NCBI GenBank assembly: GCA_044229975.1
Contig: JBGARZ010000004.1
Span: 505,453 to 569,452, forward strand
Source: Polyangiales bacterium
Lineage (GTDB): Bacteria > Myxococcota_A > Polyangia > Polyangiales > Ga0077539
Direction of reading: 5' to 3'
DNA: 64,000 bases
Shown: positions 1-7,314 of the stretch, piece after piece
Layout of the letters: every line of letters starts with the position of its first letter
Numbering within the stretch: the first letter of the stretch is position 1
Program-made: the position numbers and the translations under genes
Notes under the pieces: model-generated
Told to the model about the DNA's origin: nothing
What the model saw: only the letters and a program-made list of their open reading frames with translations
The model's database searches: none

Positions 1-2139
1 GCGTGGGTCTCCGGCGACGTGCTGCACCTGAGCTGCGAGGAGGGCCCGTCGGTGGGCTTCGGCGGCCTCGGATCGGGCTCGGGTTCGGGCGCGGGCTACG
101 GCGGCCTCGGAGGGCGGGGAGCGGGGCGCGAGCAGCGGCTGGAGGGCGATCTGTTCTTCCTGGGGGCGCGTCGTCTCGGGGCGAGCGGTCGGCTGGAGCT
201 GGACATCCCGTTGCCCGCGCATCCGGGTCGTTGGCGCTTGCAGGCGCTGGCCATCGACGATCGCGGACGGGGCGATCGGGCCTTCGCGGTGGTGGCGACG
301 TCGCGCGCGCTGACGGCCTCGGTCGACGCGCCGACGGTGCTGCGACCGGGCGATCGCGCGGGCGGCGCGCTGACGGTGCACGCGCCCTCGCTGGCGGGGC
401 AGCGGGTGGAGGTCGCGCTGGAGGGCGACGGGGTGACGGTGGCGTCGGCGCCGGGCGTGGTGACGCTCGACGCGCGGGGTGATGCGCGGGCGGCGTTTAC
501 GGTGACGGCGACGCGGTCGGGCGCGGCGACGGTGGTGGGTCGCGCGCGGGTGGGCAGCGCGCAGGACGCGGTGCGCGCTGGGATCACGGTGCGCGAGGAC
601 GACGCGGTGCAGCCGATGGCGCTGCGCTACACGGTGGCGGGTGAGGCGACGGACGTGGACGTCGCGGTTCCGGCGCTGTCGCGGGCGGGCGAGCTGCGGG
701 TGTCGGTGGACACCGGGGTGGCCGAGCAGGTCGACGAGGCGCTGACGTCGCTCTCGACGCCGCGGTGGGCCGTGCCCTTCGTGCTGGTGCAGCGGCTCCG
801 GTCGCTGAGCACGCTGGCGGGGGTCATCAACGGGCTGCCCGATGCCCAGCGCAACGAGTGGTCGGGCCGCGTGGACGATGCGTTGGCCTCGACCGAGGAG
901 CAGCTCCGAACGATGCGGGGGATGGACGGCGCGGTGGGCTGGTGGCGCACGAGCCCGTCGAGCGGATGGCTGACGGCGACGCTGCTGGTGGGCCTCGGGC
1001 CCGCCGCGCACGGCCGACACTGGAACGACGCGTGGGCGTACGTTCGCGAGCGCGCGGCGGTGGCGCGCGGCGACGAGGCCGGGCGCATCGTGCAGGCGCT
1101 CGCGATGAGCCGGACGGAGAGCGATCGGGTGCTCGGGCGGGCGGTGCTCGGGGCGTTGGCGGCGGACACGACGCTCTCGCTCGACGCGACGCGCGGCGCG
1201 TACGTGGCGGCGCGGCAGCTCGATCGGGCGGCGGCGCCGCGGTGGTCGGCGCGGTTGACGACGGCGGTGGAGGCGGTGCTCGGCGCGAGGCCGCGGGTGA
1301 CCTGCGGCGGGGTGCCGTGGTTCGCGTGTTACGGGCAGGAGCAGCAGTGGGCGTCGGAGGCGCGGGCGATGGCCACGCTGGCGGCGGGCGACGCGGCGAG
1401 CAGTGAGCTGCGGGCGCGGATGGCGACGTGGCTCGCGGCGCGACCGGCGTCGACGGCGACGTGGTGGTGGGGGAGCGCGGACGCGGACGTGGCGTGGCTG
1501 CGGTCGCGGCTGACTTCGGGGGCGGGCGCGTCGACGCGCTTCACGGTGCGCGTGGGCGGCCGCGAGGTGGCGCAGGGCGACAGCGCGCACCCGGTGACGG
1601 TGATGGTGCGCGAAGCGAGCACGGTGCTGGTCTCACTGGGGGCGTCACCGGGGAGGCTGGTGCGGGTGCGGGTGGATGGCGCGTTGGCGCTCGCGCCGGT
1701 GACGGCACCGACCGGGACGGTGGGGTTGGAGCGGCGCATCGACGTGACGGCGGAGGGTCCGTCGCTGGCGCTGCGGTGGACGCTGGCGCGCGAGGCGACG
1801 GGGGTGGAGCTGGTGGTTCCGCTGCCGGCGGGCGTGGAGGTGGCGCGGATGGCGGGCGGTCGCGCGAGGGTGCGAGCGACGGAGCAGGAGCTGGTGTGGT
1901 GGGGGCCGCTCGACCGGGGCCCCAGCGCGCTGCGGCCGATGATCGAGCGGCGCGACGGGGCGCTGGTGCTGCGGATGGAGCGACTGAACGCGGGGGCGCA
2001 CACGCTGACGCTGCCGCTGGTGGCGAGCGCGACGGGTCACTTCACGGCGGGCGGCGCGTGGCTGCGCAGCGACGACCCGACGGTGTGGTCGGTGACGCCG
2101 TCGGTGGTGCTGGAGGTGCCAACCGAACGATCGCCGTGA
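1..2139 (+). CDS. Alpha-2-macroglobulin-family protein, C-terminal part (5' truncated by window)
   Basis: Frame is open from the window edge. 'IPLPAHPGRWRLQALA...LTASVDAPTVLRPGDR' resembles the A2M MG domain, followed by a helical TED-like region ('DGAVGWW...SGWLTA') and a C-terminal 'VPLPAGVE...ASATGHF' receptor-binding-like domain. Confidence 0.7.
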   Translation, partial: AWVSGDVLHLSCEEGPSVGFGGLGSGSGSGAGYGGLGGRGAGREQRLEGDLFFLGARRLGASGRLELDIPLPAHPGRWRLQALAIDDRGRGDRAFAVVATSRALTASVDAPTVLRPGDRAGGALTVHAPSLAGQRVEVALEGDGVTVASAPGVVTLDARGDARAAFTVTATRSGAATVVGRARVGSAQDAVRAGITVREDDAVQPMALRYTVAGEATDVDVAVPALSRAGELRVSVDTGVAEQVDEALTSLSTPRWAVPFVLVQRLRSLSTLAGVINGLPDAQRNEWSGRVDDALASTEEQLRTMRGMDGAVGWWRTSPSSGWLTATLLVGLGPAAHGRHWNDAWAYVRERAAVARGDEAGRIVQALAMSRTESDRVLGRAVLGALAADTTLSLDATRGAYVAARQLDRAAAPRWSARLTTAVEAVLGARPRVTCGGVPWFACYGQEQQWASEARAMATLAAGDAASSELRARMATWLAARPASTATWWWGSADADVAWLRSRLTSGAGASTRFTVRVGGREVAQGDSAHPVTVMVREASTVLVSLGASPGRLVRVRVDGALALAPVTAPTGTVGLERRIDVTAEGPSLALRWTLAREATGVELVVPLPAGVEVARMAGGRARVRATEQELVWWGPLDRGPSALRPMIERRDGALVLRMERLNAGAHTLTLPLVASATGHFTAGGAWLRSDDPTVWSVTPSVVLEVPTERSP

Positions 2140-2178
2140 TCGTTGGAAGTGTCCGTCGGAACGGCTACCGTCGGCGCT

Positions 2179-2715
2179 GTGAGTGACCTCATCGAACTGG
2201 ATCTGGACCGCATCGGAGAGTGCAGCGTGATGGGTCCTGCCGTCCTGAACAGTCGGCGCGATGCCGCGTCGGTGAATCTCCAGCAGGCGCACGCCGAGAC
2301 ATCGCCGGTCGCGACGACATCGATCGAGGACCCCACTAACCAGAGAGCCGGGCTTCTCCGCTGGACGCCGCCCCAACAGCGAGAACGCGACGATCACGCC
2401 AATCAGCTCAAGGCGTCGGAGGATGGCGCAGAGGCCGTCGCGATCGTCACCGCCTATCGCGCTCTCGGCTATCAGACCGTCGGCCGAGCGCATCACGGAA
2501 GCGGGTCTGACCTGCTGATGCGGCGCCCCGGCGCCCCCGCGGATGACATCGTCAGGTTGGAGGTGAGCGGCATCGTTGGAAAGGCGAGTTCGACGACCCG
2601 ATTGAAGGAGAAGGTCGCTGAGCTCCGCAAAGGAAACCTCAAGCGTCCGGGCGTGGCGATGGTCGTCGCGTTCAGCGAGAGCCCCGTACGAATCCGGCTG
2701 GAAGAAGTCCGATGA
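2179..2715 (+). CDS. Hypothetical protein, PD-(D/E)XK nuclease-like
   Basis: GTG start at 2179 (ORF track starts at 2143). Motifs 'SEDGAE...GSGSDLL...RLEVSG' fit a restriction-endonuclease-like E...D...ExS arrangement. ATGA overlap with the next gene. Confidence 0.55.
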   Translation: MSDLIELDLDRIGECSVMGPAVLNSRRDAASVNLQQAHAETSPVATTSIEDPTNQRAGLLRWTPPQQRERDDHANQLKASEDGAEAVAIVTAYRALGYQTVGRAHHGSGSDLLMRRPGAPADDIVRLEVSGIVGKASSTTRLKEKVAELRKGNLKRPGVAMVVAFSESPVRIRLEEVR

Positions 2716-3161
2716 GCGAGGTCTTCGATGATCCGCGGTGGCGTCAGAGTGAGGAGCAGGCCGTCGAGGCGGAGCATGCTTCCGATCGAGGTGACCTCGC
2801 GGGCGCCCGGTCACTCTACCGACGCGCGGCGGAACAGGCTGGAGCGTTCGCGCTCTCCATCGACGGGAGCATGCCGCGCACGCGCGCCATCGCGGCCGTA
2901 ACGGCGGTCGTCCTGGCGGCCCGCGGCGGGGACTTCCATCAAGCGGTGATGCTGGCCGAGATGTTCCTCGCGTCGCCCGGAAGTCTTCCCGTCGAAGGAG
3001 TGGCTGAACTGGAGACGCTCCGTGCGAGCTACCTGCACACTCTCGCGACAAGCACATCGCCGAAGTCCAACGGCCCGCGAACGGGAAACGCGATGAAGGC
3101 CTGGCGGCAGGGGATTCGGAACCAGTTTCACGCGGACGCTGCGCACCGAGAGGCCGCGTGA
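2712..3161 (+). CDS. Hypothetical all-helical (TPR-like) protein
   Basis: 149 aa with helical hairpins 'GDLAGARSLYRRAAE' and 'GDFHQAVMLAE'. Translationally coupled at both ends (ATGA, GTGA). Confidence 0.6.
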   Translation: MSEVFDDPRWRQSEEQAVEAEHASDRGDLAGARSLYRRAAEQAGAFALSIDGSMPRTRAIAAVTAVVLAARGGDFHQAVMLAEMFLASPGSLPVEGVAELETLRASYLHTLATSTSPKSNGPRTGNAMKAWRQGIRNQFHADAAHREAA

Positions 3162-4600
3162 CCCCGAAGGTGCTCCCACTCGGCGATCGGGGCCTCGACC
3201 TGGTCCTGAGCGGCGGACTGCGGTGGGTCGAACGCGTCGCAGGCGTGGCTGGGGCGTCCATCCTGGTTCGCGGGCCTGCGGGGTCAGGCAAGACGTTGAT
3301 GGGGGTCACGCTTGCGCGAGCGCTGGCCAGACAGCTCGGTGGCCCCGTTGCCTACGGCTGCGTTGAGCTGCTCCCGACCGAGCTCGAAGCGCAGGTGCGT
3401 TCGTTGTTTCCGGCGGACGGTGACCTCGTCGTTCGGCATTCGCCCTTCGACGCTGAGGTCTCATCCGGGGCGGTCTCGATCCTCGCGAGCCTGCTGGAAC
3501 TCGGCGGCGATCCCGACCAGCTCGGGGAGGCGCTCGATCGCATGTGGGCCGACGTCGGGGCGCTCGGCGTCACGCCGAAGGTCGTCGTCATCGACTCGTT
3601 GATCGAGGGTTACGGCATCGGCAGCAACGTCTCGCGGGAGTTCGCCGACGCGATCTGCAAGCTCACGGCGCGTTGGGGCGTCGCGCTGATCCTGCTGGAG
3701 GAGTGCGGCTCGACGAAGGCGTCGCCGTGGGCCTACGCGGTCGACACGGTCATCGAGCTAGAGACCGAAGGGGACGAGGGCGCTGCGAAGACCCCAGAGC
3801 GTTGGCTGCGGGTGCCGAAGCATCGGTTTGGTCCATCGGACATCGGGCCGCATCGGTTCGTGATTCAGAGCGGGATTGGCATAGCGGCCTATCCGCGAGC
3901 GAGTACATGGCTCGAACCATGGGCGACACCTCTTGTCGATCTTCCGAACCATGGTCCCGCGCCGCAACTCTCTCGGAAGGTAAGGAACGGGAGAGATCTG
4001 ACTTTCAAAGGCCCCAACATCGCCGTTTTTGGCTCTGAAAGTTCGTCAGTGTTGAGGCTTGCACGCTCATTGAAGCCTACCGTTCCAGCCAAAGAATCGC
4101 AGTTGATTTGGTACGACTTCCAGAGTCCTCTCTCGGCCACCCCTACGCGATCGGGCAGCGTTCTTCGGGTGGGGCTCGGTCACCCCTACCTCACTGCCGA
4201 ACATCTCCTCTCCCGGATGCTCGATCGCGAACTCTTCGGTGAGGCCGTTTCTCATATTATCATCAGTGACGTCCGCACAATCCGTTCTGCAAACAACACC
4301 AACTCACTCCGGAATGCCCTGGCCACATTCTGCTCACTGACAAGATCCTGGCGAATTCCTTCGCTGCTAGTTGAGACGGCCCCAATGCGGTTCGGAGCTT
4401 GGCACCACCTCTCTGGTGACCCAAGATCTCGGGTAGTTGAAGCGGGCATCACGGAGCCCGATGTCGTCCATTTTTCTGACGACGTTGTTGAAGTTATTAC
4501 CGATGATTGGAATGGTGGCGGCCTATTGCAGGTCCGAGTGACCAACCCAACGGCAGGCACCCTGACAGTCATTCAAGCCTCCGAGTTCGGCCCTCTGTAG
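3158..4600 (+). CDS. KaiC/RAD55-like RecA-fold ATPase
   Basis: Walker A GPAGSGKT, Walker B VVVIDS, and the KaiC-type C-terminal 'RWLRVPKHRF...HRFVIQSGIGIAAYPR'. Second half is divergent. Confidence 0.75.
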   Translation: MTPKVLPLGDRGLDLVLSGGLRWVERVAGVAGASILVRGPAGSGKTLMGVTLARALARQLGGPVAYGCVELLPTELEAQVRSLFPADGDLVVRHSPFDAEVSSGAVSILASLLELGGDPDQLGEALDRMWADVGALGVTPKVVVIDSLIEGYGIGSNVSREFADAICKLTARWGVALILLEECGSTKASPWAYAVDTVIELETEGDEGAAKTPERWLRVPKHRFGPSDIGPHRFVIQSGIGIAAYPRASTWLEPWATPLVDLPNHGPAPQLSRKVRNGRDLTFKGPNIAVFGSESSSVLRLARSLKPTVPAKESQLIWYDFQSPLSATPTRSGSVLRVGLGHPYLTAEHLLSRMLDRELFGEAVSHIIISDVRTIRSANNTNSLRNALATFCSLTRSWRIPSLLVETAPMRFGAWHHLSGDPRSRVVEAGITEPDVVHFSDDVVEVITDDWNGGGLLQVRVTNPTAGTLTVIQASEFGPL

Positions 4601-6336: not shown

Positions 6337-7314
6337 ATGATCACCAAACGCTTCTGGCTCGACGCACCGGACGGACGGGTGACCATCGGCGCGTGGGCCG
6401 TTCTCATCGGCCGCAGCGCCGACTGCAACATCGTGCTGGAGCGTCCCGAGATCAGCCGCCACCACCTGCTGGTGCGCCTGAGCGGTGAAGGGGTGGAGAT
6501 GCTCCCGCTCGGCCGCGAGCCGGTGCACCTCAACGGGGTCGAGCGGTCCGTGCTCACGACGCTGCACGGCGGCGACGTCATCGACGTCGGCGGATGGACC
6601 TTCCGCGTGGGCGAGGAGGAGATCGCATACGCGGCGCGCGCCCCGGAGGCGGCGTGGTGCCTGGAGCGCCAGAGCGGGCTGCTGCACCTCGTGACGGGGC
6701 CGGTGTTTCGCGTCGGCGGCGGCGACGACGACGACCTCATCGTGGAGGGGTGGGACCCGCAGGCGTTCTCGCTCACCCTGGACGCGGGCCCGCCGGTGCT
6801 CACGGCGCTGCTGCCTGGGGTGTCGTACGAGCGCGACCTGGAGGCGGGCGAGCAGGTCACCCTCGCTCACAACGCGCGCATCACGTACCGCACGGAGACC
6901 TTCATCGTGCGGCAGAAGCGGGCGCAGGCGGCCACGGCGACGCAGGCGTGGTCGCGGCCGAAGCACGCGGTGGTGGTGATGCTGGAGTTTCTCCCGCGCG
7001 GCGGACAGATGACCGTGGAGGTGGGCGGTCGCCTGCACGAGACGCTGCTCTCCGACCGCCGCTGCGACCTGGTGGCGTGCCTGCTGCAACCGCCGGCTCC
7101 GCTGGTGGCGGGCGACTTCGTCCCCGACGAGACGCTCTGCGAGCGCGTCTGGCCCGGCGAGAAGAACAACGGCCGCCAGGAGCTCAACTCGCTGCTCTAC
7201 CGCTTGCGCCAGTACCTCTCGGAGGGCGGCATCGACCCGTCGCTGCTCTTCGAGCGCCGCAACGGCGGCCTGCGCTTCAGCCTCGCGCCCCGCGCCCGCG
7301 TCATCGTCCGCTGA
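6337..7314 (+). CDS. FHA-domain protein with C-terminal winged HTH
   Basis: FHA motif 'IGRSADC...ISRHH', a second degenerate FHA-like region, and an OmpR-like wHTH 'LCERVWPG...LNSLLYRLRQYL'. Confidence 0.75.
   Translation: MITKRFWLDAPDGRVTIGAWAVLIGRSADCNIVLERPEISRHHLLVRLSGEGVEMLPLGREPVHLNGVERSVLTTLHGGDVIDVGGWTFRVGEEEIAYAARAPEAAWCLERQSGLLHLVTGPVFRVGGGDDDDLIVEGWDPQAFSLTLDAGPPVLTALLPGVSYERDLEAGEQVTLAHNARITYRTETFIVRQKRAQAATATQAWSRPKHAVVVMLEFLPRGGQMTVEVGGRLHETLLSDRRCDLVACLLQPPAPLVAGDFVPDETLCERVWPGEKNNGRQELNSLLYRLRQYLSEGGIDPSLLFERRNGGLRFSLAPRARVIVR

Follow-up and report, generated by a model that had tools for sequence, protein, structure and literature searches.

A KaiC-like ATPase behind six unrelated toxin-like families: a candidate tripartite toxin-antitoxin cassette with an arginine-rich partner tail

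Background

The toxin-antitoxin-chaperone (TAC) systems HigBAC, MqsRAC and CmdTAC combine a toxin, an antitoxin whose C-terminal end bears a modular element, and a third component that both protects this antitoxin from ClpXP and acts as a phage sensor (10.1101/2024.02.24.581848). The subject of this work is a cassette of three genes, ORF1, ORF2 and ORF3 (open reading frames 1 to 3), on a 64,000-nucleotide stretch of a Polyangiales genome (contig JBGARZ010000004.1, positions 505,453 to 569,452; the whole stretch is hereafter the window and its genome G000). The cassette resembles the TAC systems in its toxin-antitoxin-regulator order, in the variety of unrelated toxins under one third component, in a modular C-terminal antitoxin element, in a link to ClpXP and in a third gene that is the proposed sensor, the roles in the cassette being inferred ones. 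It differs in having a KaiC-like P-loop ATPase where TAC has SecB, in that the element is a short basic motif with two arginines rather than the aromatic, aggregation-prone ChAD, and in its occurrence, mostly in Myxococcota and at scattered chromosomal sites rather than in prophages; moreover, it is known here from sequence alone.

Several other systems invite comparison. A coupled pair of the ORF1-ORF2 type also stands alone in the manner of a type II toxin-antitoxin system, 18 of the 28 loci of the ORF1 family having no ATPase within the locus. PARIS consists of two genes, for an ABC-type ATPase (AriA) and an effector (AriB), with no separate antitoxin; the likeness would lie in a ring-shaped ATPase that keeps its effector bound until a phage protein is sensed, whereas the cassette has a KaiC-like ATPase and three genes. 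The PADLOC candidate system PDC-M02 (a DUF4365 nuclease with a ~380-aa partner; aa, amino acids) is approached by one relative of the cassette, locus L029, where a PDC-M02A toxin is paired with the N-terminal portion of a PDC-M02B-like protein, but in which the C-terminal ~290 residues of the partner are replaced by the tail described below and a separate ATPase. Finally, the effector-associated-domain ternary systems share with the cassette a constant NTPase (nucleoside triphosphatase) core, variable effectors, a portable element and hosts of the multicellular type, but their cores are MoxR, GTPase or related proteins and their portable elements are folded homotypic domains (PMC7159879, in whose main text the terms "KaiC" and "RecA" are absent).

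No system in PADLOC-DB 2.0.0 (2023) matched the cassette genes (best E 0.06), as expected from a prediction made earlier from the letters of the window (the original prediction), which could assign the genes to no named system. Nor did we find a description of the cassette in the literature searched, a search whose scope excluded most subscription journals, the 2017 KaiC survey and supplements. We regard the cassette as a probable tripartite toxin-antitoxin system with an unrelated regulator, with a fair chance of forming a class of its own. It lies outside TAC because its third gene is not SecB-like, and outside the KaiC clock family because the second-domain sites and an adjacent kaiB are both missing.

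One ATPase behind six toxin-like families

The three genes lie on the + strand (ORF1 2179-2715, ORF2 2712-3161, ORF3 3158-4600), overlap by ATGA (2712-2715) and GTGA (3158-3161), and have products of 178, 149 and 480 aa. Their features are as follows.

2179..2715, + strand: ORF1, predicted PD-(D/E)XK-fold toxin of the unnamed "LEVSG" family, 178 aa, with invariant D111, E128 and K145
2712..3161, + strand: ORF2, TPR-like helical partner (likely antitoxin), 149 aa, with a C-terminal tail
3105..3128, + strand: ORF2 tail motif R132-x-x-I-R136-x-x-F139, common to partners upstream of ORF3-family ATPases
3153..3158, + strand: terminal Ala-Ala of ORF2, likely ClpXP degron, found in partners with and without ATPase
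3158..3907, + strand: ORF3 N-terminal KaiC/RecA-type ATPase domain (Walker A residues 39-46, E70, Walker B D146, E181-E182, K221-x-R223), family-conserved
3908..4600, + strand: ORF3 C-terminal degenerate second RecA-type domain, without Walker A lysine, fast-diverging and of lower GC3 (G+C content at third codon positions); candidate specificity or sensor domain

The original prediction compared these genes with nuclease + NTPase operons, a common anti-phage architecture, and made recurrence of the trio elsewhere a test. The trio does recur in other genomes, and the LEVSG toxin and partner, mentioned there as a pair from other phyla, do occur elsewhere without the ATPase; it is the ATPase, however, that is the constant part, standing behind six unrelated toxin-like families and linked to a portable partner tail. 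From 50 hits we retained 43 loci, dropping L020 (a true KaiC), L068 (distant), the second half of the split L099 gene, the near-duplicates L037 and L047, and L021 and L038, which are cut by contig ends. A coupled gene lies directly upstream of the ATPase in 42 of the 43 and in 3/3 loci found later, that is, in 45/46 and at many unrelated chromosomal sites, the exception being the orphan L034. The gene before the partner belongs to the LEVSG family in 18 loci, to an unassigned family in 12, to the Tse2-like ADP-ribosyltransferases (PF18648) in seven and to a GNAT-like family in four, while DUF4365/PDC-M02A and an HExxH protein occur once each. At L043 the toxin gene is off the contig and at L046 it was not found, so that both were grouped by partner or ATPase. 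Direct Pfam support for these labels is partial (Tse2 in 2/6 scanned, one of them above the cut-off; GNAT in 1/5), the other members having been joined by custom profiles. The unassigned family, which we take to be ADP-ribosyltransferase-like from its motifs, has no Pfam, PADLOC or PDB match; its members (L081, L085, L095, L097-L099, L028, L030, L031 and L094) are ~270 aa long with conserved FDSG and RAWTxExR motifs, and are followed by partners of ~250-295 aa.

The ATPase family is patchily distributed: it was found in 18/401 genomes of the order, with three candidates scored per genome, and in 4/401 of a phylum sample. By record title (n=27) Myxococcota predominate among the carriers, alongside two Acidobacteriota and two Pseudomonadota, and wider genome sampling around the other carriers gave few additional loci. 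Apparently intact cassettes are present in the cultured strains of L085, L095 and L097. When toxin labels are mapped onto a tree built from 40 ATPases, at least 10 switches are required, where 5 would be the minimum. In two single genomes (G019 and G022) the family is present in three to four copies that all stand behind different toxin families, so that in these the tails must be copy-specific or the copies cross-talk.

The partner tail

The partners of the different toxin families are unrelated to each other, yet they have similar C-terminal ends. Of 41 ATPase-linked partners, 37 have the pattern R-x-x-[VILMA]-R within their final 28 residues. L080, whose partner had been miscalled, was omitted from this count and added afterwards; it lacks the motif, giving 37/42, and with three later loci (3/3, one at a shifted site) the figure becomes 40/45. 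The controls were ATPase-free loci of two of the six toxin families, namely the 18 LEVSG loci mentioned above (16 with a called partner) and 30/30 Tse2-like loci (25 with a complete called partner), and here the motif was present in only 3/41 partners (LEVSG 3/16, Tse2-like 0/25). Its background among ORFs of G000 picked by codon bias is 578/5710 (10%).

Profiles trained across toxin families agree with these counts. With a profile built from non-LEVSG tails, 10/16 ATPase-linked LEVSG tails lie above the 95th background percentile, as against 0/12 of the short ATPase-free ones, though 2/4 long ATPase-free LEVSG partners do so as well; the reverse training gave 13/25 with ATPase and 0/12 without. 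The more alike two ATPases are, the more alike are the tails of their partners: across 584 cross-family pairs rho is 0.26, a value reached by 1/2000 within-family permutations, whereas an equal-length stretch further upstream gives rho -0.006. The two arginines are kept in at least 90% of the aligned tails while neighbouring positions vary, and as they are encoded by five different codons the signal lies in the protein; a phenylalanine follows them in only part of the partner set. The distance between the arginines and the stop varies from 3 to 19 residues, and the tail lies less than 100 nt away from the start of the ATPase gene. Since the same ATPase follows unrelated pairs whose partners mostly share this arginine-rich end, it likely controls the toxins by way of the tail.

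Many ATPase-free partners are longer, at 370-440 aa with extra domains (LEVSG: L102, L104, L106, L113; Tse2-like: L129, L130, L132, L137, L140, L144-L146), and BLASTP found no C-terminal domain common to the long LEVSG and the long Tse2 partners.

A second feature of the partners is the terminal Ala-Ala, which ends 30/41 partners with ATPase and 32/41 without, compared with 113/5710 background ORFs; with so similar a share in the two sets, it belongs to partners in general. We considered it as a signal specific to the ATPase, which is ruled out by the ATPase-free partners that end likewise (most of the long Tse2-type ones among them), and as a by-product of the GTGA overlap, which is ruled out by its occurrence in only 2.4% of the 1358 background ORFs with that end. 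The tmRNA tag of the genome also ends in Ala-Ala and clpX is present. In E. coli, terminal Ala-Ala is a critical ClpXP determinant (PMC10862746). From the Ala-Ala ends, the tag, clpX and this precedent we infer that the partners are labile antitoxins.

The three proteins

The first 250 residues of ORF3 match Pfam KaiC (PF06745; E 1.5e-13), and the structure model (predicted local distance difference test, pLDDT, 92.8) matches full-length KaiC across both domains, which bears out the RecA/KaiC-fold ATPase of the original prediction. The best Foldseek matches are all KaiC (E 8e-21, template-modelling score ~0.6). Like KaiC, ORF3 has two tandem RecA-type domains and keeps the catalytic residues of the first: the Walker A motif, E70, D146, E181-E182 and K221-x-R223 are retained in 72/72 aligned family sequences. 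Unlike KaiC, to which its identity is ~16%, it has no Walker A lysine in the second domain and, by comparison with the true KaiC of L020, no Ser/Thr at the aligned positions that we take to be those phosphorylated in KaiC, and there is no kaiB alongside. KaiB gave no match at 1e-12 among 134 flanking ORFs of 33 loci, and the kaiB-like genes of G000 are on another contig (C4), away from the cassette. On this sequence and model evidence ORF3 is a KaiC relative but not a clock protein. Mean family identity to ORF3 falls from 45% in the first domain to 19% in the second, and GC3 is lower in the second half of the ATPase gene in 28/37 loci (0.58 vs 0.83 in ORF3). Some ATPases are longer, at ~640 aa (L021:8-1276 and L023:3344-5272; also P0171 and P0178), with an extra C-terminal domain of ~170 aa that is nucleotidyltransferase-like by eye and has no Pfam match.

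For ORF1, a model with pLDDT 97.9 has as its best structural match a lambda-type exonuclease (Z 7.0, root-mean-square deviation 2.8, 97 residues aligned), with tRNA splicing endonucleases, Hjc and a CdiA toxin domain also among the best. Nearly all of the leading matches have the PD-(D/E)XK fold (a core of helix and mixed beta-sheet), but their scores are modest and Foldseek with the model found nothing at E 0.001 or better; the fold prediction therefore leans on many agreeing weak matches together with the acidic residues. It accords with the restriction-endonuclease-like fold proposed originally. The signature that had been proposed with it (E81..G109-S-D111..L-E128-V-S-G) is present, D111 and E128 being invariant, along with K145, in 123 aligned relatives (of 150 listed), while E81 is less than 90% conserved. 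Ser130 occupies the motif position where Lys is expected, and K145, further on, may replace the motif lysine. The matches span DNases and tRNA/RNA endonucleases. The LEVSG family is large, with 399 representatives at E 0.001 or better, and negative results surround it: no Pfam, NCBIfam or PADLOC match; in a Pfam scan of 123 members, no Pfam family recurring in more than one; no match when solved structures were searched with the alignment; and none in a profile comparison with the DUF4365 toxin of L029. On one viral contig (L159:4647-8144) a LEVSG gene with a long partner lies beside an integrase-like gene, without an ATPase.

ORF2 resembles unnamed ~135-aa clusters from Cyanobacteriota, Chloroflexota and Planctomycetota. 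Its description as a short TPR-like helical protein may be kept as far as "TPR-like" goes, the TPR match itself being below threshold (E 0.67).

Proposed mechanism and its alternatives

Taking these observations together with the TAC precedent, we propose that ORF3 shields a labile antitoxin by way of its tail, a TAC logic with an ATPase in place of SecB, and give this a probability of roughly 0.4. The predicted nuclease toxin ORF1 would be held inactive by the short-lived helical antitoxin ORF2, whose terminal Ala-Ala would be recognised by ClpXP. ORF3 would form a ring and, through its conserved ATP-binding domain, hold the arginine tail beside this degron, and so spare the antitoxin from proteolysis. 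On a signal, perhaps an altered nucleotide state or a foreign protein met by the variable, dead second domain, ORF3 would release the tail, after which the antitoxin would be degraded and the toxin would halt the cell. By extension, ATPase and arginine tag could be a portable unit that can be grafted onto any antitoxin, one ATP-driven sensor serving many toxins with a dead second domain that varies per invader, a generalisation from the sequence patterns that we offer tentatively and would still bet against.

Several points weigh against the proposal that ORF3 protects the antitoxin. The motif pattern was picked after the data had been seen, for which reason the profiles were trained across toxin families; and although some 4 independent contrasts agree and ~0.1 disagree, kin not being independent, the supported contrasts number 3 (LEVSG) and 2 (Tse2-like), too few for a sign test. 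The Ala-Ala end is untied to the ATPase and missing in 11/41 ATPase-linked partners and in all 3 later loci, and in E. coli Ala-Ala alone is insufficient for degradation (PMC10862746). At L099 a split ATPase is found next to an apparently whole toxin and partner. The data also fail to separate protection of the antitoxin from its removal: an ATPase that docks on the same tail could leave a pair that is stable by itself undisturbed until, on a signal, it strips off the antitoxin or passes it to ClpXP. The evidence from the tail and from co-transfer fits this removal equally; the same toxin families would be neutralised with no ATPase nearby (30/30 Tse2-like loci and, counting those where a partner was called, 16 LEVSG loci), and the full catalytic set of the N-terminal domain goes beyond the needs of a passive holder. 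This explanation fits the sequence data almost as well, though we consider it rather less likely than protection. The rarity of the tail in ATPase-free partners speaks against it, and the loci with a broken ATPase, 2/3 of which (L046 and L080) are also without an intact toxin, lean weakly to dependence on the ATPase; these are weak hints in favour of protection over removal.

Two further explanations dispense with proteolysis or with the physical link itself. TPR-like folds are common adaptors, and ORF2 could tether an inactive effector to the ATPase ring, to be switched on in a ternary complex; the ATPase-free relatives often have 370-440-aa partners with an extra domain where tail and ATPase would otherwise sit, and the L029 partner amounts to the first 90 residues of a PDC-M02B-like protein. 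However, many ATPase-free pairs have only a short partner (12 LEVSG, 17 Tse2-like), the GNAT-linked partners are 60-80 aa long and look unstructured, and the strong Ala-Ala enrichment points to partner turnover, all of which makes an adaptor improbable. Slightly more improbable still is that the tail is simply DNA travelling with the start of the ATPase gene, through translational coupling or as a recombination scar, with the ATPase an unrelated passenger. Co-transfer alone would also correlate tail and ATPase similarity, the tail is indeed within 100 nt of the ATPase start, and the ATPase of L034 persists without a toxin-partner pair; but conservation of the arginines through synonymous codons, amid varying neighbours and at distances from the stop that range from 3 to 19 residues, speaks against it, as does the retention of an upstream partner by 45/46 ATPase genes.

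The orphan L034 is perhaps of use here. It occupies the same moeA-moaD / histidine kinase site as L019, which has the pair and the ATPase, while L034 has a diverged ATPase only, one that has lost the family-invariant P73 and E75 and part of a Gly-Tyr loop; these residues are a single-case lead to the binding surface. Other cassettes appear to be decaying (L026, L046, L080, L090, L099 and L100), with a toxin that is fragmented, short or missing or an ATPase that is truncated or split, and some of these may be assembly errors.

Purpose and significance

Phage defence has, in our estimate, not quite an even chance of being the purpose of the cassette, stress response and selfish maintenance being the open alternatives. 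Because most loci lie among housekeeping genes, the anti-phage role stands by analogy only. A survey of 134 flanking ORFs from 33 loci, called with a codon-bias heuristic (11 loci, either short, duplicates or the window's own, being left out), also tells against a role in defence: only 7/134 match PADLOC at 1e-15, of which DruE at L094 and HmaC at L099 are clear defence genes while the other five look generic, and the ATPase was not found in the viral contigs, phages or plasmids searched.

To our knowledge, most KaiC-like ATPases outside the circadian clock have neither a known partner nor a known output; the ORF3 family comes with a candidate ligand, the five-residue tail motif, and a proposed output, toxin release. 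If the tail acts as proposed, the plug-in logic of TAC would have arisen twice in evolution, here around an unrelated regulator that uses energy. Should the wider reading of a portable ATPase and tag hold, nuclease, ADP-ribosyltransferase, acetyltransferase and other toxins would come under one controller, tripartite toxin-antitoxin immunity would gain a new class, and KaiC-like proteins would have a further function. The ATPase can also serve as a hook for new toxin families, 2/6 of those found here having no database name.

Genomic setting of the cassette

The arrangement of the locus is as originally predicted, with the three ORFs and both overlaps in place between an alpha-2-macroglobulin-like gene on one side and a lipoprotein-type gene on the other, and so is the weaker codon bias, GC3 being 0.76, 0.77 and 0.71 in ORF1, ORF2 and ORF3 against 0.93-0.96 in four neighbouring genes. 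None of the three genes has a paralog elsewhere in G000. Only 1/8 same-genus genomes has the ATPase, at a different site, and in the three relatives in which the DNA upstream of the orthologous lipoprotein gene is readable it is occupied by other genes; the cassette is thus a variable insertion. No terminal repeats and no consensus promoter were found around it. A look at sequencing runs listed no RNA run that contains it, and what turned up were small fractions in short fragments. The GTG start of ORF1 at 2179 has the same position in relatives. Shortly before it is one further feature:

2166..2171, + strand: possible -10-like hexamer, 7 nt before the ORF1 start, with no Shine-Dalgarno sequence; the consensus promoter scan did not report it

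A TAnnnT hexamer 6-8 nt ahead of the called start, likewise with no Shine-Dalgarno sequence, was seen at 9/15 LEVSG loci with a usable start, a count with no background comparison behind it; the pattern suggests leaderless transcripts.

The alpha-2-macroglobulin-like gene (window 1-2139) is followed in four relatives by TetR and ABC-transporter genes and not by the lipoprotein gene, and since those genes are on contig C20 in G000, the stretch around it has been rearranged. On the other side, an FHA-domain regulator gene (window 6337-7314) lies between the lipoprotein gene and thrA, a position from which it is absent in G002, G003 and G004.

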